Shown piece by piece: positions 2,063-47,219 of a DNA stretch of 47,482 nt. The translations under genes and the position numbers were made by a program. The stretch lies in assembly GCA_038078695.1 (NCBI GenBank), contig JBBTVS010000012.1:1-47482 (forward strand), in the 5' to 3' direction. The stretch's first letter is position 1. The number at the start of each line of letters is the position of its first letter. Under the pieces are notes generated by a model. The model worked only from the letters and a program-made list of their open reading frames with translations, had not been told where the DNA came from and searched no databases. The stretch comes from Patescibacteria group bacterium (lineage in GTDB: Bacteria; Patescibacteriota; Patescibacteriia; UBA9629).

Positions 2063-3006
2063 CCCCGATAATACTCTGCCGCGTCTTCCGGCAAAACAGG
2101 GTTGATTACAATGCCGGAACCAATCTCCACTCCTGCCCAAATAGGTCCGCGAGGAGTAATCTTTACATACAAATGCTGATCTTCGTCATTAACTACTTGA
2201 TGAAAATAATAATTATAATCCAAGCCTATGCTGAATAGCTTCTTGACTAATGTTTGAAAAATCCGCGCCCATGCCAATCTCTCTTTCCCATTCAATAAAG
2301 TAATATTGTCTAAATGGCGAAGAGGCATAATCCAAGCTTCGTAATTATGCATGGAAGCATACGGGCAAAAAGCTATCACATAGCTGTCTTTATAAATTAG
2401 CCGCGGCCCGTTCTGTTCTTTGCTTATCACATCGCAGTAAACGCAGGTGCCGCGTTCAAGTTTGTAGCGCTGGACCCGCTGAGATTTATCTACCAAATGC
2501 GGCGGTATAAAATCTGTGGCAAAAATTTGCGAATGGGCATGCTCTAAACTAGCTCCAGCACTGCCGCCCTGATTTTTAAAAATAATAATATATTCTATTT
2601 TGTCGTTTTTGGTAATTTCAATCGTGCGCGCGGCATAAACTTTTAACAAATCAGATATATGCTCTATCGGCAGATCCTCAAACTTTTGATTATGATCCGG
2701 AGTCTCTATCACCACCTCCTGTTGACCGTAAGCCTTGGGGTTATCTAATGCTACCGCAGGGTATTTATTAAAAACGACTTTTATTTTCCATGGCTGATTT
2801 TTATCAGACGGATATACTCCATCTCCCTCTGGAGTTAAACAATAAATGCCAGTCGGATGTTCCGTGTGGTTAGAATCAAAGGGGCATGTTTTTAATTCTT
2901 TGGCATAACCAATCTTTCCGGCATCATGCGGTCGCCGGCTGCGGTGCGGAGCGATAATTACGTATTTTTCTTGAATATAATCCTTGCGGATTTCGGATTT
3001 TGTCAT
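2059..3006 (-). CDS. galT: Galactose-1-phosphate uridylyltransferase-like HIT-family nucleotidyltransferase
   Basis: FNKYPA, NQGGSAGASLEHAHSQIF (H-x-H-x-Q nucleotidyl-histidine motif) and a duplicated half-barrel layout, 315 aa. Confidence 0.65.
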   Translation of the reverse strand: MTKSEIRKDYIQEKYVIIAPHRSRRPHDAGKIGYAKELKTCPFDSNHTEHPTGIYCLTPEGDGVYPSDKNQPWKIKVVFNKYPAVALDNPKAYGQQEVVIETPDHNQKFEDLPIEHISDLLKVYAARTIEITKNDKIEYIIIFKNQGGSAGASLEHAHSQIFATDFIPPHLVDKSQRVQRYKLERGTCVYCDVISKEQNGPRLIYKDSYVIAFCPYASMHNYEAWIMPLRHLDNITLLNGKERLAWARIFQTLVKKLFSIGLDYNYYFHQVVNDEDQHLYVKITPRGPIWAGVEIGSGIVINPVLPEDAAEYYRG

Positions 3007-4073
3007 ACTTTATGTTTTAAAATTTTATAATACGCTCTCTCATAATCTTCCGTCATCTTCTCGGCAGTAAAATATTTCTCTACCCTCTCTCGACATTTAT
3101 GTCGGCGAATTTGATCTATATTTTTAATAGCTTTGACAATATCTTTTTGACTTCCGCAAATAAAACCCGTCTCCTGATCAGCCACAACCTCAGGCACTGA
3201 ACCAAAACCATTGGCAATAACAGGAGTGCCGCAAACCATGGCTTCTATTATTACCAATCCAAACGGCTCGTTCCATTTAATGGCATCAATCAAGCCGCGC
3301 GCATTTTTCAATAGTTTAACTTTCTGTAAATGACTTATCTCGCCAATGTATTTAATTTGATCGCCGTCTATCAATGGCCTGACTTTTTTGTTAAAATACT
3401 CCACATCTGCTGGCACAAATTTATCTATTTTGCCGGCCATAATCAATCTGACTCCCGCCTGTTTAGCAGCTAAGATTGATTCTACAGCGCCTTTATCAGA
3501 TGTAAATCGGCCCATCCAGACAAAATAATCTTTAGGTTTGTCGTTAAAATCAAATTTGCTGATATCAATGCCGTTATAAACATTGCCGACCCAATTGATT
3601 TTAAAAGGGGTATTGCGCGCTTGAGAATGACTAATGGAAATCATTGGAGTATTCTGAAAAAGTTTTTTTAAAAACTCAAACCCTGCTCTCTTTCGGCTAT
3701 GAGTTAAATCGCCGTGATAAGTGGAAACAAAAGGCTTGTCTAACAACTTGGCAAAGGCCGCCCCCCACGCGCCGTAATGATTATGAACAAGATCAAAACC
3801 CCCGCGCTGAATCTTAGCAAAGGCATAAGATGCGTGCAATAAAGAAAAATATTTATCGTCCCACGATATGTCAGAGCGATAACCGGCTTTAGCATGAATA
3901 TACTCAAGTTTGGCCGAAGTTTTAGAATCACCGGTAGCAAAAACTGTAACCAAATGACCATTTTTATGCAAACCTTCAGCTAAATTATATACGACCAATT
4001 CAGTGCCCCCGTATTTAATCGGCGGCACTGCCTCCCACGGCGTAGAGAATAAAGCAATCTTTAACTTTCTCAT
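3003..4073 (-). CDS. Glycosyltransferase family 4 (GT-B fold), paralog A
   Basis: N-terminus KIALFSTPWEAVPPIKYGGTELVVYNLAEGL; C-terminal E-x7-E region NEPFGLVIIEAMVCGTPVIA. About 60-65 percent identical by eye to the next gene. Confidence 0.8.
   Translation of the reverse strand: MRKLKIALFSTPWEAVPPIKYGGTELVVYNLAEGLHKNGHLVTVFATGDSKTSAKLEYIHAKAGYRSDISWDDKYFSLLHASYAFAKIQRGGFDLVHNHYGAWGAAFAKLLDKPFVSTYHGDLTHSRKRAGFEFLKKLFQNTPMISISHSQARNTPFKINWVGNVYNGIDISKFDFNDKPKDYFVWMGRFTSDKGAVESILAAKQAGVRLIMAGKIDKFVPADVEYFNKKVRPLIDGDQIKYIGEISHLQKVKLLKNARGLIDAIKWNEPFGLVIIEAMVCGTPVIANGFGSVPEVVADQETGFICGSQKDIVKAIKNIDQIRRHKCRERVEKYFTAEKMTEDYERAYYKILKHKV
3544..3635. repeat. 92-nt near-identical tract shared with 4613-4704 (1 mismatch)
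   Basis: ttaaaatcaaatttgctgatatcaatgcc[g/a]ttataaacattgccgacccaattgattttaaaaggggtattgcgcgcttgagaatgactaat lies in both GT4 paralogs. Flanking DNA is much more diverged. Confidence 0.9.
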
Positions 4074-4077
4074 AATA

Positions 4078-5145
4078 TTAACTTTTTAAAATTTGACGAT
4101 AAATTTTTTCATATTCAACTGTCATCTTATCCGCGGAAAAATATTTCTCTGCTCGAGCACGGCATTTCCTGCGATCAATCTCGTTGATATTTTGAATAGC
4201 TTTGACAATATCTTTTTGAGTTTTAGCGATAAAACCAGTCTCTCCGTCAATTACTATCTCCGGAACAGATCCGCATTGATTCGCGATAACCGGGGTGCCG
4301 CAAGCAAAAGATTCGGTCATCACCAATCCAAAAGGCTCATTCCAATTAATTGGATTAAGCAAACCAATGGCATTTTTTAACAATTTTACTTTTTTTTGAT
4401 GATTAATTTCACCAATGTATTTAACCAGCCTACTATCAAGTAATGGTTTGATTTCTTGATTAAAATAACTGACCTCTTCCGGATGAAAACTGCTTAATCG
4501 TCCAGCTAAAATTAATTTTACTTTTGCCTGGCGCGCGGCTAAAATAGCTTCTTTAGCGCCTTTAGATGGAGCAAACCTGCCCATCCATGCAAAATAATTT
4601 TTTGGTTTGTCCTTAAAATCAAATTTGCTGATATCAATGCCATTATAAACATTGCCGACCCAATTGATTTTAAAAGGGGTATTGCGCGCTTGAGAATGAC
4701 TAATAGATACAAAGCCAGTTTGCCCTGCCAGTTGGACAAAATATTTAAAATCCTCCGGCCGCAAATCCGCGGCAAAATCTCCGTGATATGTTGTGACAAT
4801 CGGCGTACTTAACAATGATGCAAAAGCCAATCCCCATGCGCCATAATGATTATGGATAATGTCAAACTTTTGTTCTTTCATTTTAGCAAAAAGATAAGAA
4901 CAATGCAAAAGAGCAGGCGCTTTGTCAGGCGGCAAACCCATCTGATAGCCGGATTTTTTACAAATATACTCTAATTTAGCCGACGTATGCGAATCTCCAG
5001 TTGCAAAAACAGTTACATCATGTCCTTTTTTTACCAAACTCTCGGCTAAATTATAAACGATCAGCTCGGTGCCACCGTATTTAGGCGGCGGCACAGCCAC
5101 GCGAGGCGTAGAAAATAAAGCTATTTTAAATTTTTTTCCAATCAT
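4078..5145 (-). CDS. Glycosyltransferase family 4 (GT-B fold), paralog B
   Basis: KIALFSTPRVAVPPPKYGGTELIVYNLAESL and NEPFGLVMTESFACGTPVIA; tandem paralog of 3003..4073. Confidence 0.8.
   Translation of the reverse strand: MIGKKFKIALFSTPRVAVPPPKYGGTELIVYNLAESLVKKGHDVTVFATGDSHTSAKLEYICKKSGYQMGLPPDKAPALLHCSYLFAKMKEQKFDIIHNHYGAWGLAFASLLSTPIVTTYHGDFAADLRPEDFKYFVQLAGQTGFVSISHSQARNTPFKINWVGNVYNGIDISKFDFKDKPKNYFAWMGRFAPSKGAKEAILAARQAKVKLILAGRLSSFHPEEVSYFNQEIKPLLDSRLVKYIGEINHQKKVKLLKNAIGLLNPINWNEPFGLVMTESFACGTPVIANQCGSVPEIVIDGETGFIAKTQKDIVKAIQNINEIDRRKCRARAEKYFSADKMTVEYEKIYRQILKS
4613..4704. repeat. 92-nt near-identical tract shared with 3544-3635
   Basis: See 3544-3635. Encodes SISHSQARNTPFKINWVGNVYNGIDISKFDF in both genes. 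Confidence 0.9.
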
Positions 5146-6825: not shown

Positions 6826-6873
6826 TGACATTTGGATTTGATTTGATATTTGACATTTGAGTTTGACATTTTT
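6826..6873. repeat. Heptamer-periodic TTTGACA-type repeat array in the yebC-ruvC spacer
   Basis: tgacatt tggattt gatttga tatttga catttga gtttgac attttt. Confidence 0.8.
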
Positions 6874-12833: not shown

Positions 12834-12882
12834 AGTTTTTAGTTTTTAGCTTTACGCTTTTAGTTTTTAGCTTTACGCTTTT
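12834..12882. repeat. Tandem 21-mer (3 x 7 nt) repeat: agttttt + 2 x agtttttagctttacgctttt
   Basis: Exact copies at 12841-12861 and 12862-12882, preceded by a partial unit at 12834-12840. Fills the whole yidC-DUF721 spacer. Confidence 0.9.
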
Positions 12883-12886
12883 AATA

Positions 12887-16109: not shown

Positions 16110-17381
16110 ATGACTTATCAAAATCTCCAACAACAAGACCCGCAAATCTACGAAGCAATCCAAAACGAGCTCAAGCGCCAGCAGTCGGTTTTAGAAATGA
16201 TTGCTTCGGAAAACATTGTCTCTCAAGCGGTTTTGGAAGCCGCTGGAACAGTGCTGACTAACAAGTATTCTGAAGGCTATCCGGATCATCGCTACTATGC
16301 CGGCAATCAATTTATTGACGTTTGTGAAAAATTAGCGATTGAACGGGCTAAACAGCTTTTCGGATGCGAGCATGTTAATGTCCAGCCCCATGCCGGCTCC
16401 CAGGCCAATATGGAAGCGTATTTCGCGATTTTAGAATTAGGCGATAAAATGTTGGCGATGAACTTGGCTCACGGCGGGCATTTGACCCACGGCTCGCCGG
16501 TAAACTTTTCCGGCAAATTTTACAATGTTGTCCATTACGGAGTTGGTCGTCAAAATGAACGGATTGATATGGATCAAGTGCGCGAATTGGCTCATCAAGA
16601 AAAACCTAAATTGATTTTAGCAGGCGCTTCTGCTTATCCGCGAGAGATTGACTTTAAGGTATTTAGAGAAATCGCTGACGAGGTCGGCGCTTATTTTATG
16701 TCTGACATTGCTCATATTGCAGGATTAATTGCGGCTAAACTTCATCCTGACCCAATCCCCTATTGCGATATTGTTACAACGACAACTCATAAAACCCTTC
16801 GCGGACCAAGAGGAGCGATTATAATGTCAACTGTCAATGACCGTCTGCGGCCTCAAGACAAAAAAAATCTTGCTCAAAAAATAGATAGCGCGGTTTTTCC
16901 AGGAATGCAAGGCGGTCCTTTGGATCACATCATCGCGGCTAAGGCAGTGGCTTTTGGCGAGGCGCTAAGCCCTGAATTTAAAGAATATCAAAAACAAATT
17001 ATTAAAAACGCCAAAGCTCTTGCCGAAGAATTATTAAATCAAGGCTTGCGATTAATTTCCGGCGGCACTGACAATCATTTAATGTTAATTGACGTTACTG
17101 CAATTAGCGGGCTAACTGGCAAAATAGCGGTTAATGCTTTAGATGAAGCCGGCATTTGCTGCAATAAAAATATGATTCCTTATGACCCGCGCTCGCCGTT
17201 TGATCCATCCGGCATCAGGCTTGGCACGCCGGCCTTGACTTCGCGCGGAATGAAAGAGACAGAGATGAAAATTGTTGGTGAGTTAATTGGACGAGTGTTG
17301 AAGAATATTGATAAAAATGATGTTAAGCAGGAGGCAGGCTGTGCGGTTACAGAATTGACAGGCAAATTTCCGATCTATTGA
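16110..17381 (+). CDS. glyA: Serine hydroxymethyltransferase
   Basis: [28 protein letters not shown] and [13 protein letters not shown] (PLP lysine). Start set to ATG 16110; the ORF-track start at 16095 is TTG. Confidence 0.95.
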
Positions 17382-17411
17382 TATAGATTCCTGCTTTCGC
17401 AGGAATGACAT
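17382..17411 (+). repeat. Hairpin repeat family, copy A (tatagATTCCTGC-tttc-GCAGGAATgacat)
   Basis: 8-bp stem 17387-17394/17399-17406. The identical 31-mer recurs at 21624-21654. Fills the glyA to mgtE-N spacer. Confidence 0.85.
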
Positions 17412-17414
17412 AAT

Positions 17415-19894: not shown

Positions 19895-19916
19895 GGAAAA
19901 AAATATTGGTATTCGT

Positions 19917-19947
19917 ATGTCATTCCCGCGCAGGCGGGAATCTATAT
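19917..19947 (-). repeat. Hairpin repeat family, copy B (stem variant ATTCCCGC/GCGGGAAT)
   Basis: atgtcattcccgcgcaggcgggaatctatat is the reverse complement of the atatagATTCCCGC-ctgc-GCGGGAATgacat form. Overlaps the last 8 codons and the stop of trmD. Confidence 0.85.
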
Positions 19948-21590: not shown

Positions 21591-21654
21591 TATGTCATTC
21601 CGCACTTGATGCGGAATCTATCTTATAGATTCCTGCTTTCGCAGGAATGACATA
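21591..21654. repeat. Hairpin repeat family, copies C (21591-21621, inverted, stem ATTCCGCA/TGCGGAAT) and D (21624-21654, identical to copy A)
   Basis: tatgtcattccgcacttgatgcggaatctat ct tatagattcctgctttcgcaggaatgacata, followed by a partial duplication ctatgacatact. Confidence 0.85.
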
Positions 21655-21682
21655 CTATGACATACTAAGTTTCTAATAAACT

Positions 21683-23554
21683 TTACGATAATACACTTTT
21701 TACCTTCTTAATAATAGCATCTTTTGAAATCTCCTCATAGTCCAATAACTCCTGCATCTTGCCGCTTTTCGGCATCTTTCGCACAGCCATTATGTGTACT
21801 GGAATTTGATTATTTGACAACGCCGACGCCGCCGCCTCCCCAAGCCCGCCCTCTGCGAAATGATCTTCTACTGTGATAATGGCTTTGGTTTCTCTTGCCG
21901 CCTGCTTTAAAATTTTTTGATCTATTGGCTTAATGCTGTAGCAGTCAATCACTCTAATAAATATACCCTCTCTCGCTAATTCTTGATATGCGGCGAGCGC
22001 TTCGTGTAAAGTAATGCCAGCGGCAATAATTGTAACTATATCATTTTGACTGCTTTTAACCACACAACTGCCGCCAATTTCAAAATTATCTTCTTGACTA
22101 TAAAGCACAGAAGTCTCTGCTCTGGTTGTGCGAATATAAACAATGCCTTGATATTTAGCCGCCTCTTGTACCAACTTCTCGCAGGACACGGCATCGCTGG
22201 GATACAAAACCGCGCCATTTAAAATGGTCCGAAACATAGCAATATCTTCCAAGCCCATCTGGGAGGCGCCGTCCGCGCCGATTGAAACTCCTGCATGAGA
22301 GCCGACAAACTTGATATTGCTGTCAGAATATTGGCTCATGCGGATTTGATCAAAAGCTCGCGTAAAAAAAGCGGCAAAACTGGAAACATACGGAATCTTG
22401 CCCAGCTTTGACAGACCCTGCGCCATTCCAACCATATTCTGCTCCGCAATAAAACACTCAATAAACCGACCCGGGTAATGCTTTTTGAATACTTCTGCAA
22501 AAGTTGAATTCCCAACCTCCGCGTCAAGCGCCACTATATTTGGATATTTTGGAAAAATCTTGACTAATGCATTGCCATAGGCTTGCCGTGTAGCCACTAA
22601 TTGACCTTTTACATATTCCGCGAATTTGACATTTGCCTGCCCGCCGCATTGGAGGGGCATTTGACATTGATTTGACATTTGATATTTGATATTTGATATT
22701 GGCTTCTTAAATTTTCTTCGCACCTCCTTATCAACCTCCCCCATCTCCTTTAGCGCTTCTGACAATTGTTCTTGATTCAGCGCTTTCCCATGCCAGCCAT
22801 CTTTATTTTCCATAATTTTAACGCCCTTGCCTTTTACGGTCTTGGCAATAATCATCACTGGTTTATTTTTGACTACAAGAGCTTTTTGATAGGCTTTGAT
22901 GATTTTTGACAAATTATGTCCGTCGTCAATCAAAAAAACTTCCCATCCAAAGGCAGAAACTCGCTTTTGATATTCTTCTACCTTGTATCCAAGCATTGTC
23001 TCGCCCCGTTGACCTAAACGATTTACATCAATAATACCTATAAGATTATTTAATTTATAATATGACGCTAATTGCATCGCCTCCCAATTTGAGCCTTCAA
23101 CCATTTCGCTATCGCCCAATAATACATAAGTGCGATAAGGCAGTTTGTCAAGTTTGCCGTTTATAGCCATACCGGCGCCGATTGACAAACCTTGTCCTAA
23201 AGATCCGGTAGCGGCTTCGGCATAAGGAAACTTTAAACTAGGATGACCCTCTAAGCGGCTATTGAATTGACGCAAAGTCATCAATTCTTCTTCGCTGATT
23301 TGACCGGCAACGGCCCATAAACCGTAAAATAAAGGCGCGGCATGGCCTTTGGAAAAAATCAGCCGATCATTATTATGATAATCAGGATTGTCAGCGTCAA
23401 AACAAAAAAATCCGCCAAAGATTAAAGCAGCCATCAATTCCACGGCTGACAAAGAGGATGACGGATGGCCGGAACCGGCGGCAGTTGTGGAGGTCAAAAT
23501 ATAATAGCGGATCAGCTTGGCTAATCTTTCTAATTGTGAGATGTTTGCGGGCAT
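21683..23554 (-). CDS. tkt: Transketolase, N-terminal and C-terminal halves joined by a repeat-encoded linker
   Basis: N-half: AGSGHPSSSLSAVELMAALF, GSLGQGLSIGAGMA, LLGDSEMVEGSNWEA. C-half: ATRQAYGNAL, FIECFIAEQNMVGMAQG, GSHAGVSIGADGASQMGLEDIAM. The linker is PISNIKYQMSNQCQMPLQCGGQANVKF. Confidence 0.9.
   Translation of the reverse strand: MPANISQLERLAKLIRYYILTSTTAAGSGHPSSSLSAVELMAALIFGGFFCFDADNPDYHNNDRLIFSKGHAAPLFYGLWAVAGQISEEELMTLRQFNSRLEGHPSLKFPYAEAATGSLGQGLSIGAGMAINGKLDKLPYRTYVLLGDSEMVEGSNWEAMQLASYYKLNNLIGIIDVNRLGQRGETMLGYKVEEYQKRVSAFGWEVFLIDDGHNLSKIIKAYQKALVVKNKPVMIIAKTVKGKGVKIMENKDGWHGKALNQEQLSEALKEMGEVDKEVRRKFKKPISNIKYQMSNQCQMPLQCGGQANVKFAEYVKGQLVATRQAYGNALVKIFPKYPNIVALDAEVGNSTFAEVFKKHYPGRFIECFIAEQNMVGMAQGLSKLGKIPYVSSFAAFFTRAFDQIRMSQYSDSNIKFVGSHAGVSIGADGASQMGLEDIAMFRTILNGAVLYPSDAVSCEKLVQEAAKYQGIVYIRTTRAETSVLYSQEDNFEIGGSCVVKSSQNDIVTIIAAGITLHEALAAYQELAREGIFIRVIDCYSIKPIDQKILKQAARETKAIITVEDHFAEGGLGEAAASALSNNQIPVHIMAVRKMPKSGKMQELLDYEEISKDAIIKKVKSVLS
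22623..22700 (-). repeat. TTTGACA-type repeat element copy translated in frame inside tkt (78 nt = 26 codons)
   Basis: Contains the exact 21-mer aaatgtcaaatcaatgtcaaa (reverse complement of 22660-22680), also found at 24142-24162 and 31758-31778. Also carries a GC-rich core tgcccgccgcattggaggggca. Confidence 0.85.
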
Positions 23555-23737: not shown

Positions 23738-24136
23738 CTACTTCATTTCTCTCAACTTCTTTTTAGAATCTCTTAAAAAATAAAGTTTAGCCCGGCGAAT
23801 TTTAAAAACTTTATCAATGACAATCCTGTCAACCAGCGGACTATGGACTGGAAAAATTTTCTCAACACCAACGCCATCGCTGTCTTTGCGAACAGTAATG
23901 CTGGCGCCTGGTTCATTTCCATGCTTGCGGGCTAGAACCATGCCCTTAAAAATCTGAATTCGCTCTTTTATTTCTCCTTTAGGCGTAGTATCAACAACTT
24001 TTTCGTGAACGCTAACTATCATGCCGGCGCGCACTTTGTCGCGATCGTCTTTTTGAGTCTGTCTTTTTTTATCTTGTTTATCCTCTTGTTTTTGACTGTC
24101 TTGTTTTTTATCCACAAATAAAATTTCAAATGTCAA
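23738..24136 (-). CDS. rplS: 50S ribosomal protein L19 with Lys/Gln/Asp-rich N-terminal extension
   Basis: RAGMIVSVHEKVV...ERIQIFKGMVLARKHGNEPGASITVRK...GVGVEKIFPVHSPLVDRIVI...RRAKLYFLRD. The exact start is uncertain: TTG 24136 lies inside the repeat element, and GTG 24115 is an alternative. Confidence 0.85.
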   Translation of the reverse strand: MTFEILFVDKKQDSQKQEDKQDKKRQTQKDDRDKVRAGMIVSVHEKVVDTTPKGEIKERIQIFKGMVLARKHGNEPGASITVRKDSDGVGVEKIFPVHSPLVDRIVIDKVFKIRRAKLYFLRDSKKKLREMK

Positions 24137-24245
24137 AATCTAAATGTCAAATCAATGTCAAAATCTAAATATTTCCGCCGAATCGGCGGATTGGCATTTG
24201 TCATTTGGATTTGATTTGGCATTCGACATTTGTCATTTGGATTTA
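24121..24245. repeat. Composite TTTGACA-type element: inverted heptamer-array arms around GC hairpin TCCGCCG-aat-CGGCGGA (24174-24190)
   Basis: The left arm 24127-24162 matches 31743-31778 at 35 of 36 nt. The right arm catttgtcatttggatttgatttggcattcgacatttgtcatttggattt is an imperfect inverted copy. Overlaps the gmk stop and the putative rplS start. Confidence 0.85.
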
Positions 24246-24810
24246 TCACTAATCTCCTTTTTAATAATCCCTGCCGCCTCCTCTACTGCCTCATTCAATT
24301 TCCCTTCTCTATTAACCACTACATAATCATACTTCCTCGCCTCTTTAAATTCTCTTTTAGCGTCATCTAATCTTATTTTAACTTCTCTTGAATTAAACCA
24401 TGCTTTCTGCATCCGCGATTTTAAATCATCTAAAGACGCTGGTTTAACAAATATAAAAACTGTTTGAGATTTAAGCTGTTTTCTAATCTGTTCTGCTCCT
24501 TGAACATCAATAGTCCAAATAATATTCTTGCCTTTATTTTTAATCCTGTCTATTTCTAAAGCTGGAGTGCCAAAATATTCGTTGCCCCGCAAAATCGCCC
24601 ATTCTAAAAAATAGCCCTGTTTGATGCGCTTTTTAAACTCATCATGACTAAAAAATAATAATCTCGTCCTTGTACTTCTTTATTTCTTGGCTGCCTCGTA
24701 GTTGCCGTAATCGCTCTTTCTAAATTTAATTCTTGCTTATTTAATAATCCGTCAATAATCGCGTTTTTGCCTGATCTCGAAGGCCCGGAGATGATAAAAA
24801 TTTTTGGCAT
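24233..24810 (-). pseudogene. gmk: Guanylate kinase interrupted by a 1-nt frameshift at a homopolymer (A6 on plus strand, 24650-24655)
   Basis: N-ORF: GPSRSGKNAI, TTRQPRNKEVQGRDYYF. Shifting frame at the T6 run in the coding sense continues as (F)SHDEFKKRIKQGYFLEWAILRGNEYFGTP...IWTIDVQGA, which joins ORF 24233..24592. Confidence 0.8.
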
Positions 24811-26030: not shown

Positions 26031-26058
26031 AAAATTGAAAATTGAAAATTGAAAATTT
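26031..26058. repeat. Tandem heptamer array (aaaattg x3 + aaaattt)
   Basis: aaaattgaaaattgaaaattgaaaattt lies between the gdh stop and the SD of the downstream gene. Confidence 0.9.
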
Positions 26059-27294: not shown

Positions 27295-27295
27295 G

Positions 27296-27447
27296 AAAAT
27301 AATGTCAAATGTCAAATCTCAAATGTCAAATCTACATCTCAAATTTTAAATTTATTTAGATTTAAGTTTTAAGTTGCAGTTTTTCCGCCAGAGGCGGACC
27401 AGCCTTTGGCTGGGAGCTTTAAGCTTTGAGCTTTGAGCTTTAATCAC
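27296..27447. repeat. Composite repeat spacer: aatgtca-type heptamers, GC hairpins TCCGCC-aga-GGCGGA (27384-27398) and CCAGCC-ttt-GGCTGG (27399-27413), then agctttN heptamers
   Basis: aatgtcaaatgtcaaatctcaaatgtcaaatctacatctcaaatt...ttccgccagaggcggaccagcctttggctgggagctttaagctttgagctttgagcttta. Fills the trxA-gdh spacer. Confidence 0.85.
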
Positions 27448-31734: not shown

Positions 31735-31861
31735 TGAAATATCAAATGTCAAAATCCAAATGTCAAATCAATGTCAAATGTCAAATAATCAATATAACTA
31801 AAACTTTTTGACATTTGAAATTTGGATTTGATTTGAAATTTGACATTTGAAATTTGACATT
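31735..31861. repeat. Composite TTTGACA-type element: inverted heptamer-array arms (31743-31790 and 31806-31860)
   Basis: Left arm caaatgtcaaaatccaaatgtcaaatcaatgtcaaatgtcaaat. Right arm ttgacatttgaaatttggatttgatttgaaatttgacatttgaaatttgacat. Shares the 21-mer core with 24142-24162 and 22660-22680. Confidence 0.85.
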
Positions 31862-32845: not shown

Positions 32846-33786
32846 TTCTTTGCCGCAACCTGTTCCAGCTTTCCAGCAGAGCCTAGCTTCTCGTTTTTGC
32901 GCGCGATAAACTTACCGTATTCTTCCATAAAAATTTTGCCCGGCTTTCTAAAATCAATGTTTTCCGGGTTTTCAATCAAGTGCTTGCGATGAACCGCTGT
33001 CCAAACCAAACGGCCGTCCGTATCAATATTAACTTTTACGACGCCCAAGGGCACGGCTTTTGCAAAATCGTTTTCATCAACGCCTTTGGTGCCTTCTAAT
33101 TTGCCGCCGTATTTATTGATGCGGTCAACCTCTTCTTGAGGCACGCTGGACGAGCCATGCATCACCAAAGGAAACCCTGGCAGGCGCTTTTGAATTTCAG
33201 CTATGCGATCAAAATGCAAGCCAAGGGAGCCTGTAAATTTATAAGCGCCATGGGAAGTGCCGATAGCCACAGCCAAAGAATCACAATCAGTGCGCTCAAC
33301 AAATTCTTTTGCCTGATTTGGATCAGTAAGATGCGCGTTTTGTTCATCAACCGCGATGTTTTCTTCCACTCCGCCAAGCTCGCCAAGCTCTGCTTCAACA
33401 GTAATATCTTTCTTGTGAGCGCGGCCAACAACGCGCTTGACGATCTCAATATTTTTTTCAAATTCCTCTGCGCTGGCGTCAATCATTATGGAGCTGTAAA
33501 AGCCGGAATCAATGCAATCACAGCATGTTTCTTCATCGCCGTGATCCAAGTGCACCGCAAAAACCGCCTCTGGAAATAACTTATCAGCGGCGCGGATTAT
33601 CGCCTCTAACATAGATTTGTCCGTATAGTCCCGCGCTCCTTTGGAAATTTGAATAATAAACGGCGCTTGGGAATCAAGACTGCCGCGGAACAATCCAATG
33701 CACTGCTCTAAATTATTGATATTATAAGCGCCAACGGCAAACTTTGAATAAGCGATTTTAAACAGCTGTTTAGTTGTTATGATCAT
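32842..33786 (-). CDS. fba: Fructose-bisphosphate aldolase, class II
   Basis: AVGAYNINNLEQ, APFIIQIS, VHLDHG, ELGELGG, AIGTSHGAYKF and LVMHGSS. Confidence 0.9.
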   Translation of the reverse strand: MIITTKQLFKIAYSKFAVGAYNINNLEQCIGLFRGSLDSQAPFIIQISKGARDYTDKSMLEAIIRAADKLFPEAVFAVHLDHGDEETCCDCIDSGFYSSIMIDASAEEFEKNIEIVKRVVGRAHKKDITVEAELGELGGVEENIAVDEQNAHLTDPNQAKEFVERTDCDSLAVAIGTSHGAYKFTGSLGLHFDRIAEIQKRLPGFPLVMHGSSSVPQEEVDRINKYGGKLEGTKGVDENDFAKAVPLGVVKVNIDTDGRLVWTAVHRKHLIENPENIDFRKPGKIFMEEYGKFIARKNEKLGSAGKLEQVAAKN

Positions 33787-40272: not shown

Positions 40273-41240
40273 TTAAATCTTGCCATAATTTTAAAATTTT
40301 TGAACTCCGATTCCATCTGCGCTAAGGTCAAAAGTCCATTCCACGCTCCAATCTGCTTAATGCAGGAGCCGGCGTTTAATGCGCCCCAGAGCAGACAGTC
40401 TGTTAATTTTTTATTATTGATATAGCCGGCCGCAAAGCCGCTGGAAAAAGCATCGCCCGCGCCAGTTACCTCTTTCGGATTCTCTTTTAATCCGCGCGCA
40501 GAAGCTATCTCTTTAGTTTCTTGATTTTTAGCCCAAGCGCCGGCTTTACCATCGGTTATTACAGTTATTTTAGGTCCTAATTTAAGCAAAATATTAAGCA
40601 AGAAAATATAATTGCGGCTTGGCGCGACATTCAACAACATTTCCGCTTCTTGCTTGTTTAAAATTAAAATTTCAGTTTTGCGCAACACCGGCAAAAGAGC
40701 CCTTGCGCCGAGTTTAAGCTCGCGCTCTCCTGGATTAAAGATAATTTTAGGCCCGGCCGGCAATTGCTTAGCCGTTAATTTATAATATTGGCCCAAAGAA
40801 GCTAAATAGATCCATTTAGTTTTTGGCCATTTTATTTTTTTAAAATTTTTAGGCTGATGATAAGATAGTATTACGCGGTCATTTTTATCTTTGCGCCAAT
40901 CTAGAATGTAAGACAAATTAACAGCGGATTGTTCATCAAAATTGCAATATTTTACGGATATTTTTTCTGCTTTAAGATGATTGATTATTTCGCGAGAGCG
41001 ACTGTCAAAACCAAAAGAAGTTATAATTGCGGTTTTTAATTTTAGACGGCTAAAACCAACAGCAGCGTTTGCGGCGTTTCCTCCAATATGCTGTTCTAAA
41101 TTTTGAATCGGTACTTTGCCGCCAACCGGAAAGCAGTAAAAATTTTCTTTTCTCTTTTTGTCTTTGTGATAACAAATATCAACTGCTTCTAAAAAAGTAT
41201 CAATAGTAGCTGTGCCGACGGTTGTGATGTCGTAAGTCAT
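40269..41240 (-). CDS. PfkB-family carbohydrate/nucleoside kinase
   Basis: GGNAANAAVGFSRLKL and the C-terminal anion-hole motif VTGAGDAFSSGF; 323 aa ribokinase-like layout. Confidence 0.8.
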   Translation of the reverse strand: MTYDITTVGTATIDTFLEAVDICYHKDKKRKENFYCFPVGGKVPIQNLEQHIGGNAANAAVGFSRLKLKTAIITSFGFDSRSREIINHLKAEKISVKYCNFDEQSAVNLSYILDWRKDKNDRVILSYHQPKNFKKIKWPKTKWIYLASLGQYYKLTAKQLPAGPKIIFNPGERELKLGARALLPVLRKTEILILNKQEAEMLLNVAPSRNYIFLLNILLKLGPKITVITDGKAGAWAKNQETKEIASARGLKENPKEVTGAGDAFSSGFAAGYINNKKLTDCLLWGALNAGSCIKQIGAWNGLLTLAQMESEFKNFKIMARFN

Positions 41241-41273
41241 AATTCATAAATCATAATTCATAAATTTGACATT
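41241..41273. repeat. Heptamer-periodic array (aattcat aaatcat aattcat aaatttg acatt)
   Basis: Fills the DJ-1 to pfkB spacer. Confidence 0.8.
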
Positions 41274-41816: not shown

Positions 41817-43484
41817 CTAAATATTTTTAATCATATAACCCCATTTTTCCTCCAGCTTATATCCTAATTTTCTATAATATTCTCTTACTCCAACCCCTGA
41901 TATCACTGTGAGTTTATCATAACCGGCAGATTTGGCAATTTTTTCAGCATGATGCAAAAGCCTTTTGCCTAAGCCGCGGTGTTGCGCGAATTTGGAATTT
42001 AAAATTTGGAATTTAGAATTTAGCGGAGCAGGCGAACCATATGTATGAAGTTCGCGAATTAAGGCAGCATGACGCAAAATTGGCAGTTGACTTTTAAGAT
42101 CTCCTGACAGAAATCGCAGGCGCGTAAAAGCATATAAAATTTGTCGATCTGCACTCTCAAAAGAGATAAAATATTCTATGCCGCCCGACGCGTTATATTT
42201 ATCTATAAATAATTTTGCATTTTGCATTTTCATTTTAAATTTTGCATTTTGAATTTTGAATTGATTGCCTACTTCTCTGCACCTGATGCATGTACAAGTA
42301 TAATTCATCTGCGCCTGCACCATCTCTCTAATATTTATGTGCTTGCATCCTTCAACAATATCGCAAGATGGCACATCGCGATAAATCCGTTCAATGCGCA
42401 CATAAGGCGGCACAAATTTTTTCATCTGCGCCAAAAGGCCAATCAATGTTTTATCATTGTAAGTTTTATATTTGCCCTGCTTCCACCGGCGATAAAGCGG
42501 CGTATTTTTTAAAACCACGCAAGGGTATATCTTTAATTGATCAGGCCGCAAATTTGGATCGTCAAACAGCTCTTTAAATGTTTGCAAATCCAGTTTAGCA
42601 GTTGAACCAGGCAAATTAGGCATAATATGATAGCAAATTTTAAAACCAGCATCTTTAAGCAATTTAGTTGCGCGCAGTACATCATTTTTAGTTTGATCCC
42701 GTTTGATCAAATCAAGCACTTTTTGATCCAAATGCTGGATCCCTAACTCAACTTTTGTCACCCCAAACTTTCGTAGCTGCTTTATTTCTTCTAAAGTAAT
42801 ATAATCTGGTCTTGTTTCTATTGATAGACCAACGCAGCGATGTTGAGCGGTTTCATTGTTTCTTTGTAATTCTGTTAACCTCTGACCCACTGCTTTTATT
42901 TGGGATTTAGGATTTGGGATTTGATTAGAAATTAAAAATTGGAAATTAGAAATTGAAAAATTATTTAACCCTCTATACAATTCCCTAATAAACCAACTTT
43001 GATACTTGCGCGGATACGCGCTCCAAGTTCCTCCTAAAATTCGCAGTTCAACCTTCTCCAATTTATGGCCGTTATTATAAAAGGCTTGCATGCGCCCCTG
43101 TACCTGTCTAAAAGGACTATATTTAAAACGCAAAGCGCGCGCAGCCGCCGGCTGGGAAGGCAAATAGCTTTTTGGCATTAAGGCATTGCTTGGACAGTAG
43201 ATACAGCGGCCCGGACAAGGATAAGGTTTAGCGGCTACTGCGACCGGCGCGACGCCTGACAAAGTTCGCACACGGCGCTTAATCAATAAATCCTCCAACC
43301 GCGGCTCAACTTTAATTTTATTAACAGCTAAACATTCGCGATAAATTTTCAACAGCCAATTATTGTTTACAATCCCGATATTAAAATCCCGCGCAAGCTG
43401 ACGTTTGGCGCGGGAAAGTTGTTCTGCTGTGGTTATGTGTTGGCTAGTTATTGATTGGATGATCTTAATTGATTTGTCGTTCAT
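41817..43484 (-). CDS. elp3: Elp3-like radical SAM + GNAT acetyltransferase (tRNA U34 cm5-modification enzyme homolog)
   Basis: rSAM motif KPYPCPGRCIYCP, CVGLSIETRPDYIT, VTKVELGIQ, CIRCREVG, and GNAT motif QHRGLGKRLLHHAEKIA. Three repeat-encoded low-complexity loops. Confidence 0.8.
   Translation of the reverse strand: MNDKSIKIIQSITSQHITTAEQLSRAKRQLARDFNIGIVNNNWLLKIYRECLAVNKIKVEPRLEDLLIKRRVRTLSGVAPVAVAAKPYPCPGRCIYCPSNALMPKSYLPSQPAAARALRFKYSPFRQVQGRMQAFYNNGHKLEKVELRILGGTWSAYPRKYQSWFIRELYRGLNNFSISNFQFLISNQIPNPKSQIKAVGQRLTELQRNNETAQHRCVGLSIETRPDYITLEEIKQLRKFGVTKVELGIQHLDQKVLDLIKRDQTKNDVLRATKLLKDAGFKICYHIMPNLPGSTAKLDLQTFKELFDDPNLRPDQLKIYPCVVLKNTPLYRRWKQGKYKTYNDKTLIGLLAQMKKFVPPYVRIERIYRDVPSCDIVEGCKHINIREMVQAQMNYTCTCIRCREVGNQFKIQNAKFKMKMQNAKLFIDKYNASGGIEYFISFESADRQILYAFTRLRFLSGDLKSQLPILRHAALIRELHTYGSPAPLNSKFQILNSKFAQHRGLGKRLLHHAEKIAKSAGYDKLTVISGVGVREYYRKLGYKLEEKWGYMIKNI
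41988..42023. repeat. Heptamer array translated inside elp3 (protein PLNSKFQILNSKFA)
   Basis: gaatttg gaattta aaatttg gaattta gaatttag. Confidence 0.8.
42211..42264. repeat. Heptamer array translated inside elp3 (protein NQFKIQNAKFKMKMQNAKLF)
   Basis: aattttgcattttgcattttcattttaaattttgcattttgaattttgaattga. Its reverse complement shares caaaattcaaaatgcaaaatt with the rpoC-upstream spacer 47166-47219. Confidence 0.85.
42899..42965. repeat. Heptamer array translated inside elp3 (protein NNFSISNFQFLISNQIPNPKSQIK)
   Basis: Coding sense: aattttt caatttc taatttc caatttt taatttc taatcaa atcccaa atcctaa atcccaa. Gives a 7-aa protein periodicity FSISNFQ/FLISNQI/PNPKSQI. Confidence 0.85.
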
Positions 43485-47165: not shown

Positions 47166-47219
47166 AAATTTAAAATTCAAAATGCAAAATTCAAAATGCA
47201 AAATTCAAAATTTAAAATT
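47166..47219. repeat. Heptamer array (aaaattc aaaatgc)n immediately upstream of rpoC
   Basis: aaatttaaaattcaaaatgcaaaattcaaaatgcaaaattcaaaatttaaaatt. Confidence 0.9.

Follow-up and report, generated by a model that had tools for sequence, protein, structure and literature searches.

A heptamer-array element in the gmk-rplS spacer of a Patescibacteria genome as a probable gene-less miniature of a palindromic insertion cassette

Contig JBBTVS010000012.1 of assembly GCA_038078695.1 (47,482 nt; hereafter the window, meaning the whole stretch of DNA analysed) comes from a Patescibacteria metagenome-assembled genome (MAG) close to Candidatus Jacksonbacteria, and the spacer between its gmk and rplS genes holds a structured element at 24121-24245. 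We find that this element consists of two inverted arms built from 7-nt units around a GC hairpin, that copies of it are dispersed through several phyla, and that some copies enclose a gene for a small four-helix-bundle protein. We consider probable a reading in which the gmk-rplS spacer represents a miniature, without the gene, of a selfish palindromic insertion cassette that resembles the intervening sequences (IVS) of 23S rRNA. Such an insertion would give a concrete origin for a puzzling type of spacer in the streamlined genomes of Patescibacteria.

According to this reading, full-length cassettes would carry a gene for a ~120-aa TIGR02436/PF05635 protein (S23p, related to the Avd protein of diversity-generating retroelements, DGRs) between inverted heptamer arms of ~55 nt. 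The element would have inserted into a former operon junction of 1-4 nt, and it would be transcribed together with gmk and rplS and form a long imperfect stem-loop. Judging from the 23S intervening sequences as an analogue, the transcript would probably be trimmed by RNase III or just tolerated, with the flanking genes still working. In coding regions only the stop-free A-rich arm would survive, read as a loop or linker peptide. The element would thus be tolerated because it lies between a stop and a start codon, or because a single stop-free arm is accommodated in protein loops.

The modules of the element read as a sequence-only reading of the window had claimed: arm, hairpin and inverted arm. 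The A-rich left arm (aaatttcaaatgtcaaaatctaaatgtcaaatcaatgtcaaaatctaaata; 24122-24171, plus strand) is composed of CAAATNN heptamers, carries a 21-nt core at 24142-24162 and matches a hidden Markov model of the arm at 24122-24169 (E 7e-10); its consensus left end, AATG, is located 20 nt before the 21-mer. The 17-nt GC hairpin TCCGCCG-AAT-CGGCGGA (24174-24190) leads to the T-rich right arm (ttggcatttgtcatttggatttgatttggcattcgacatttgtcatttggattt; 24191-24245, plus strand), an imperfect inverted copy of the left arm in NNATTTG heptamers with the consensus ..TTTGGATTTGATTTGACATTTG..CATT. Tandem Repeats Finder detects periods of 7 and 14 at 24121-24170 and 24190-24244, and the units include CAAATGT, CAAAATC and CAAATCA. 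Predicted folding energies for the two strands are -37 and -41.5 kcal/mol (z -4.5 and -5.8 against shuffles), with a predicted stem of ~45 bp interrupted by small internal loops. The genes around it all lie on the minus strand: gmk (24233-24810) on one side, and on the other rplS (23738-24115), tRNA-Leu and tRNA-Val, and then tkt. The right arm overlaps the final 13 nt of gmk and supplies its TGA stop codon, while the element abuts the start codon of rplS. An overlap of such elements with the ends of coding sequences had been proposed and is indeed seen, both here and at the starts of trpS, gdh and ruvC, where further arms end.

The exact 21-mer AAATGTCAAATCAATGTCAAA occurs at three sites in the window (22660-22680, minus strand; 24142-24162 and 31758-31778, plus strand) and in none of 100 shuffles. 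The 36-mers at 24127-24162 and 31743-31778 differ by a single mismatch, and the 9-mer AATGTCAAA is found 21 times where 0.9 would be expected. The 21-mer and 36-mer repeats had both been described before and were reproduced, with the refinement that the 21-mer inside tkt is read in frame. The shared core is not periodic, since its two TGTCAAA units stand at 11-nt spacing; it contains no stop codon in any frame, and its complement contains TGA. Two further public assemblies from the same population, GCA_964359395.1 (NCBI) and ERZ1292638 (ENA), independently reproduce the gmk-rplS element at ≥99.9% identity. The element is therefore not an assembly artefact, an alternative that the sequence-only reading had kept in view. 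We note that gmk itself is split by a 1-nt indel (window 24592-24604) into open reading frames (ORFs) at 24604-24810 and 24233-24592. It is intact (192 aa) in the near-identical contig of GCA_964359395.1, and the split probably stems from an error in assembly or consensus, or from a frameshift at strain level.

A family across phyla and its gene-bearing relatives

A scan for exact matches to the 21-mer, with one genome per species, returned at least 113 loci in at least ~71 species-level assemblies from several phyla, some of them on contigs of 1.2-3.0 Mb; because the exact 21-mer was required, these loci sample a single sub-family. By the MAG depositors' own taxon labels, the matches listed include Patescibacteria (Magasanik-, Falkow-, Berkel- and Parcubacteria and 'Saccharibacteria'), Desulfobacteraceae, Syntrophaceae, Thermodesulfobacteriota, Gammaproteobacteria, Planctomycetota, Brocadiales, Omnitrophota, Methylomirabilis, Leptolinea, Bdellovibrionales and one Pacearchaeota bin, the archaeal assignment of which is unconfirmed. 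The architecture of these loci is uniform: a centre of variable length (0 to ~100 nt) separates an A-rich arm from a T-rich one, and the median length is 130 nt. Conservation falls sharply 20 nt beyond the core on either side, at ends AATG…CATT that correspond to 24122 and 24245 of the window. In fact, six copies from different phyla (including those of the window, 'Saccharibacteria' and Methylomirabilis) can be aligned over their full length with a mean column identity of 69%. The alignment of copies that had been suggested for finding termini and target sites thus defines the former. Taken with three junctions that are empty in a syntenic relative (see below), these loci substantiate the earlier view that we are dealing with a mobile or recombination-spread structured family and not with ordinary AT-rich spacer. 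Neither the exact 21-mer nor any relative of the four-helix-bundle gene turned up on viral contigs, which rules known phages out as the vehicle.

Two side observations concern particular loci of this family. Thirteen loci, mostly labelled by their depositors as Desulfobacteraceae or other Deltaproteobacteria, form a sub-family with a conserved centre of ~100 nt and a conserved left flank, ttcaaaatgagcagaNaatttctgctg…, and may be composites with another small element or small RNA. On the contig binned as Pacearchaeota (L026, 1200-4815), a copy lies directly beside a DGR-like locus, which encodes a bAvd-like protein (PF22296, 1836-2171) and, as a typical DGR target, a protein of 781 aa that has an FGE-sulfatase/C-type-lectin-like domain. 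This adjacency may be due to chance.

Local replication slippage could in principle generate heptamer arrays by microsatellite-like expansion, in which case the likeness between loci would be low-complexity convergence and nothing would have been transferred. The many different units among the arrays of the window are in line with this, as is the heptamer copy number that differs between strains of Coxiella (GACAGAT units; PMC4990558). The same can be said of two features of the assemblies: two short-read contigs (L002 and L003) terminate inside the rnj-trpS array (window 31753-31839), and in the GCA_964359395.1 contig the rnj-trpS spacer is 64 nt shorter, a difference that is indistinguishable from repeat collapse because the other two contigs end inside this very array. 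However, the core is non-periodic, an irregular 36-mer is common to two loci with one mismatch, a ~130-nt consensus with defined ends recurs in several phyla, the indels of the GC hairpins are discrete, and the arms co-occur with a conserved protein gene. As an account of the element, slippage is very improbable and, for the 21-mer family, largely refuted; it probably still modulates the number of units in arrays once they are inserted. Evidently, the arrays also break or collapse assemblies. The GCA_964359395.1 contig further contains an extra ~100 nt near window 32885-32939, duplicating ~55 nt of window sequence.

The link to a protein gene comes from three loci (L066, L068 and L087), belonging to Patescibacteria, Thermodesulfobacteriota and Brocadiales, in which arms including the exact 21-mer enclose an ORF of 120-140 aa. 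The three encoded proteins share 61-64% mutual identity, belong to Pfam PF05635 (23S_rRNA_IVP) and NCBIfam TIGR02436 ("four helix bundle protein"), and match PDB 2RLD. The start codon of the enclosed ORF is located inside the A-rich array, and the array therefore encodes the N-terminus (MSNVKVQSSNEIQNPN…). A metagenome scan with these proteins yielded at least 552 relatives. Flank length sufficed for a comparison at 77 metagenome loci. At 56 of these the upstream and downstream sequences are inverted copies with a score ≥20, compared with 0 of 77 shuffled controls. Lag-7 identity is 0.44 and 0.40 in the flanks of these cassettes versus 0.23 within the gene, and the arrays are 15-20-fold concentrated in the 100 nt adjoining the gene. 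The unit sequence varies among cassettes (AAATGTC, AATTTCT, ATAATTT, AATGACG and others), and the period of 7 and the inverted layout remain constant.

Similar cassettes are found on plasmids of cultured bacteria, where heptamer arrays flank six of seven copies of the four-helix-bundle gene (Nostoc, Planktothrix, Bernardetia, Treponema). The plasmid cassette of Nostoc punctiforme PCC 73102 (NPUN_RS34315 on pNPUN01) has GTCGGAG units upstream and CGACCTC units downstream; that of Planktothrix agardhii has AATCCCC and AATCGTA upstream and TTACGAT downstream; the Bernardetia plasmid carries AGTGATT x16, and a plasmid of Treponema saccharophilum has a cassette of the same design. A frame-independent "start arm / stop arm" rationale for the period of 7 fits the 21-mer family and fails for the Nostoc and Planktothrix units, and was dropped as a general explanation. 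We also note the position of the cassettes on four plasmids, from Anabaena cylindrica, Nostoc sp. TCL26-01, Pseudanabaena and Planktothrix: two plasmids have the cassette flanked by cas2 and cas1, one has it immediately ahead of cas1, and on the remaining one it separates the DISARM gene drmD from the gene for an MmeI-type restriction enzyme. In PADLOC the four-helix-bundle proteins match no defence model. PF05635 proteins are structurally related to DGR Avd (PMC10053308), and in the intervening sequence of Coxiella 23S rRNA 2-4 GACAGAT heptamers stand before the ATG of an S23p ORF, while RNase III cuts the terminal inverted repeat (PMC4990558).

Filled and empty junctions, transcription signals and constraint

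Two related genomes cover the junctions of interest. In Candidatus Jacksonbacteria RIFOXYA2_FULL_44_7 (TrpS 70% identical), the synteny rplS-gmk-rluD-gdh-trxA … rnj-trpS is retained and all three junctions are tight: gmk/rplS is 3 nt long compared with 117 nt in the window, trxA/gdh is a 4-nt overlap compared with 149 nt, and rnj/trpS measures 1 nt compared with 133 nt. Tight, coupled junctions are the likelier ancestral state, and we therefore read these differences as insertions. In GCA_043820515.1 (TrpS 92% identical), both trxA/gdh and rnj/trpS are filled, and the contig ends before gmk/rplS. Its trxA-gdh arrays are homologous to those of the window (88% identical). Its rnj-trpS spacer is occupied by arrays of a different unit type (AAAACTC/GAGTTTT) and by a TCCGCC…GGCGGA hairpin of its own. 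In a further relative (L199, 1060-1150; TrpS 78% identical), trpS is not beside rnj and is preceded by two tandem copies of the GC hairpin ACCCGACTTTAGTCGGGGT.

The TTGACA hexamers repeated in the T-rich strand of the arms had been likened to -35 elements, and the GC hairpin has A-rich sequence upstream and T-rich sequence downstream on both strands. On these grounds the element could act in transcription, as a group of -35-like promoter elements or as an intrinsic terminator that works in both directions. A consensus scan of 24121-24245, however, returned no promoter-like and no terminator-like site. The tkt and rnj-trpS copies have only weak TTGACA-N17-GATATT pairs. The hexamers noted earlier are thus present, and in the gmk-rplS element they make up no promoter-like sites. 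The hairpin is followed by TTGGCATTTG on the plus strand and AAATATTTAG on the minus strand, with T runs broken every 3-4 nt, in agreement with the earlier remark that it lacks the U-run of a terminator. By simple ORF heuristics, full copies are located between co-directional genes in either orientation (23 vs 20), between divergent genes in six cases and between convergent genes in only one. Many copies have no GC hairpin at all, and sigma-70 signals would be inapplicable to the Pacearchaeota-binned copy if that unconfirmed label is right. In view of these findings, a role as transcription signal is hardly credible.

A more serious alternative, which we nevertheless regard as unlikely, is a cis-acting RNA or DNA element that serves the host and was spread by selection. 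The arrays would then be multivalent sites for a single-strand-binding protein (cold-shock/OB-fold, S1-type or a four-helix-bundle pentamer), or the element would be an operon-internal hairpin that tunes the stability or translation of gmk and rplS. Several features are compatible with such a role. Arms run directly to start codons, and the elements part Shine-Dalgarno-like motifs from start codons that the hairpin could rejoin. Regulation of translation has been proposed for start-codon heptamer repeats in Beggiatoaceae (PMC4679880) and Nostoc (bioRxiv 10.1101/2022.06.06.494920), and CspB, according to a citation in PMC4679880, binds one heptamer per monomer. On the other hand, the same junctions of the Jacksonbacteria genome work with 1-4-nt spacers, and in GCA_043820515.1 (TrpS 92% identical) units of an unrelated kind have taken the place of the rnj-trpS array. 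Furthermore, the orientation relative to transcription is random, and copies occur in unrelated gene contexts and in coding regions. Pairing of the arms points the same way. The constant CAAA/TTTG positions are paired in 80-99% of elements, and the core has a conserved T·T/G·A bubble. At the 2-3 variable positions per heptamer, pairing is limited to 36-51% of elements, with no compensatory covariation; the stem is thus not maintained by compensatory change. In Rfam, only tRNAs reach the gathering threshold in the window, and the best match of the element by E-value is noise, at 18.5 bits.

Other observations, together with this missing covariation, weigh against a selfish palindromic cassette. 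The transcribed strand folds no better than its complement, so that a sense-strand bias, which host function would equally call for, is not seen. Between the window and GCA_043820515.1, the trxA-gdh arrays are 88% identical (119 columns) compared with 76% at fourfold-degenerate sites (n=271), which hints at some constraint or at homogenisation between copies and also favours a host-serving element. We found no transposase, REP-associated tyrosine transposase (RAYT; REP, repetitive extragenic palindromic sequence) or reverse transcriptase linked to the element, and the case for mobility accordingly rests on presence and absence. No recognisable target-site duplication was seen at the three filled junctions in a comparison with an empty-site genome that is only ~70% identical. 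That genome shares only 70% amino-acid identity, and the direction, gain and not loss, is inferred by parsimony. The 47-kb window contains no four-helix-bundle gene, the two arm types show no consistent orientation with respect to the gene where it is present (18 vs 14; 17 vs 9), and the association of arrays and gene could reflect genes settling into pre-existing arrays.

Further arrays and nested GC hairpins in the window

Four to five copies of the family are present in the window. The second full copy occupies the rnj-trpS junction (31737-31861, plus strand), with a left arm at 31737-31787, an AT-rich centre without GC hairpin and a right arm at 31807-31861 that runs directly up to the trpS ATG (31862). 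Its inverted repeat has 49-nt arms that are 78% complementary. Both arms are homologous to those of the gmk-rplS element (88% and 79%), and only the centres differ. A half-element, comprising the A-rich arm with the exact 21-mer, is located in the inter-domain linker of tkt (22625-22700, minus strand), where it is translated in frame as ISNIKYQMSNQCQMPLQCGGQANVKF within a single 623-aa ORF. A single arm separates ruvC from its upstream neighbour (6826-6871, minus strand; A-rich on the coding strand) and ends at the ruvC ATG.

These arms are one case of a general array phenomenon in which the unit sequence varies among lineages. Tandem Repeats Finder detects ~17 period-7 arrays with differing units across the window, most of which fill gene junctions, and in a lag scan self-similarity is enriched at lags 7 and 14 only, with no such enrichment in shuffles. 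The trxA-gdh junction (27295-27443) contains AATGTCA/AATCTCA units at 27300-27344, TTTAAGT-type units at 27345-27383 and AGCTTTA units at 27414-27443. An intergenic array of AAATTCA/AAATGCA units (47166-47219) and further period-7 arrays at 12837-12883, 26031-26057 and 41233-41265 represent the same phenomenon in different sequence families. In the Elp3-like gene, three in-frame arrays (41988-42023, 42211-42262 and 42898-42963, minus strand) form loop insertions such as FSISNFQFLISNQIPNPKSQIK; these are lineage-specific, and 522-aa homologues lack them. Where arrays lie inside ORFs, the A-rich strand is the coding strand in all cases (4/4 in the window, 3/3 elsewhere).

Similarly, many enzymes of Patescibacteria, among them five tkt and five Elp3 homologues, have lineage-specific peptides of 7-residue period in loops or linkers. 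Examples are QITNKSQITNLKSQI, NVKCQM and FKFQISNKSQISNSKF, which resemble translated heptamer arrays; more distant, shorter homologues (Nitrospirota-type tkt, 522-aa Elp3) are without them.

The GC hairpins are separable nested insertions, and the 17-nt hairpin of the gmk-rplS element was acquired separately, as judged from comparisons of sequence. In the trxA-gdh spacer, the window differs from GCA_043820515.1 by an exact 30-nt extra block at 27384-27413 (a 30-column gap), consisting of the two hairpins TCCGCCagaGGCGGA and CCAGCCtttGGCTGG. In the tkt array, where the two genomes share ~87% nucleotide identity, the window contains an exact, GC-rich, in-frame block of 21 nt (22636-22656, minus strand), which is also seen as a 7-residue difference from a tkt homologue (P0003). 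Both blocks sit at heptamer boundaries, and neither is accompanied by a target duplication. Their exact presence and absence between close relatives confirms that the element is composite, as had been supposed. The motif TCCGCC-N3-GGCGGA recurs once in the window, at 27384-27398, as reported earlier, against 0.05 occurrences expected. In 1.05 Mb of collected loci, TCCGCC-N3-6-GGCGGA, the dispersed family to which the 17-nt hairpin belongs, is present in 23 copies compared with ~0.5 expected, about half of them beside heptamer arrays. A near-identical 17-nt hairpin is found at another locus (L024), and the same double hairpin in an unrelated Parcubacteria contig (L077). In other copies of the element there are CCTGCCTGC…GCAGGCAGG hairpins, which may lie in either arm and differ in their position.

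Two additional features of the window stand apart from the element. A second dispersed hairpin family, TATAGATTCC(T/C)GC-loop-GC(A/G)GGAATGACATA, is located just downstream of genes at 17381-17412, 19916-19947 and 21624-21655. A compensatory change, CCTGC/GCAGG to CCCGC/GCGGG, is seen in its stem, and one of the copies has 97% conservation in the relative L197 (GCA_043820515.1). The family may be a terminator or a REP-like element. At 3003-4073 and 4078-5145, two adjacent genes of ~355 aa are tandem paralogues with 70-78% nucleotide identity in a 1069-nt register.

Comparison with known systems

The closest resemblance is to the 23S rRNA intervening sequences of Coxiella burnetii and Leptospira (PMC4990558), which share with the gene-bearing relatives the same PF05635/TIGR02436 protein family. 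As here, terminal inverted repeats make a long stem around the ORF, tandem heptamers of variable copy number stand directly before the start codon, and both elements are regarded as selfish. The intervening sequences, however, are located in helix 25 or 45 of 23S rRNA, whereas the present copies lie at mRNA operon junctions and in protein linkers, with no rRNA in the window. The former carry an S23p ORF and the window copies do not. The present arms, moreover, consist wholly of heptamers with a cross-phylum 21-mer core, and excision by RNase III, with which the predicted ~45-bp stem is compatible, would here be an analogy.

Short tandemly repeated repetitive sequences (STRR) are known by named units such as CCCCAGT, TTGGTCA and CAACAGT. 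To our knowledge and in the literature searched, neither these nor the TAACTGA repeats have been linked to four-helix-bundle genes, and cyanobacterial plasmids show heptamer repeats that are so linked. The cyanobacterial STRR (including TTTTGAA repeats in Nostoc) and the TAACTGA repeats of Beggiatoaceae, cyanobacteria and Bacteroidetes (PMC4679880) resemble the present arrays in their intergenic 7-nt units, which frequently stop at a start codon or 1 nt short of one and are translatable in one orientation only. As here, their distribution across phyla is patchy, suggesting horizontal transfer, and assemblies break inside them. In contrast to those repeats, the present arrays are arranged as inverted pairs whose ends are defined and whose core is not periodic, and their units differ.

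Miniature inverted-repeat transposable elements (MITEs) and REPINs, the REP doublets mobilised by RAYT (PMC3116915), are likewise ~130 nt long, palindromic, non-coding, dispersed and extragenic, are present or absent at orthologous sites and fold as single-strand hairpins. The sequence-only reading had called the element MITE-like, and it does have inverted arms of ~55 nt, a total length of ~125-130 nt, no coding capacity and many dispersed copies. In a strict sense the assignment is not established: no target duplication was recognised and no transposase or RAYT partner identified, and the only ORF-bearing elements with these arms encode the four-helix-bundle protein and not a transposase, which could act in trans from elsewhere in a genome. 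The arms are AT-rich tandem heptamers and neither GC-rich REP palindromes nor terminal repeats derived from insertion sequences, and the sequence, far from being restricted to one genus, is found in several phyla.

Rickettsia palindromic elements are selfish sequences of ~100-150 bp, intergenic as well as in-frame, which add surface loops to proteins and are confined to Rickettsia. The present sequence is unrelated to them; only its stop-free arm persists in ORFs, and the resulting peptides have a 7-residue period. The small dispersed repeats of Nostocaceae are very small hairpins nested in other repeats. The present GC hairpins (17-30 nt) behave alike in being nested, in their exact presence and absence between close relatives and in inserting in frame. 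Their sequences differ (TCCGCC..GGCGGA and CCTGCCTGC..GCAGGCAGG), and their hosts are Patescibacteria and others and not Nostocaceae, the hosts of the repeats reportedly described by Elhai et al. in 2008 (cited in PMC5861425).

Strict membership fails for each known class: the element is not in rRNA, has other units, and lacks a known transposase, RAYT or target duplication. In the searchable literature, which is incomplete, we found neither the 17-21-mers of the element nor a description of this cross-phylum family, nor, beyond the Coxiella intervening sequence, any general link of inverted heptamer arrays with four-helix-bundle genes. One and the same non-coding element, with 21 identical nt, is spread through many uncultivated phyla. 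Its arrays produce false start codons, lengthen annotated ORFs, break short-read assemblies and add loops of 7-residue period to enzymes such as transketolase and Elp3.

A bolder extension, which we put forward as a speculation with the odds clearly against it, is that heptamer arrays and pentameric four-helix-bundle proteins (S23p/Avd-like) together constitute a class of mobile cassette that has so far gone unrecognised. The protein would find its cognate nucleic-acid binding sites in the arrays, one 7-nt unit per subunit, and would mobilise both the cassette and the miniatures that lack the gene, possibly with the help of a reverse transcriptase from the host or of DGR type. If this were true, a single mechanism that involves no known transposase would account for 23S rRNA intervening sequences, STRR-type and Beggiatoa-type repeats, and the spacers and loop insertions of Patescibacteria. 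Since cassettes of the same design are present on plasmids of cultured Nostoc punctiforme and Planktothrix, protein binding, arm cleavage and movement are accessible to experiment.

In sum, the comparison links three old puzzles, namely the 23S rRNA intervening sequences, the S23p/TIGR02436 proteins of unknown function and the heptamer repeats of cyanobacteria and sulfur bacteria, and points to one type of cassette behind them.

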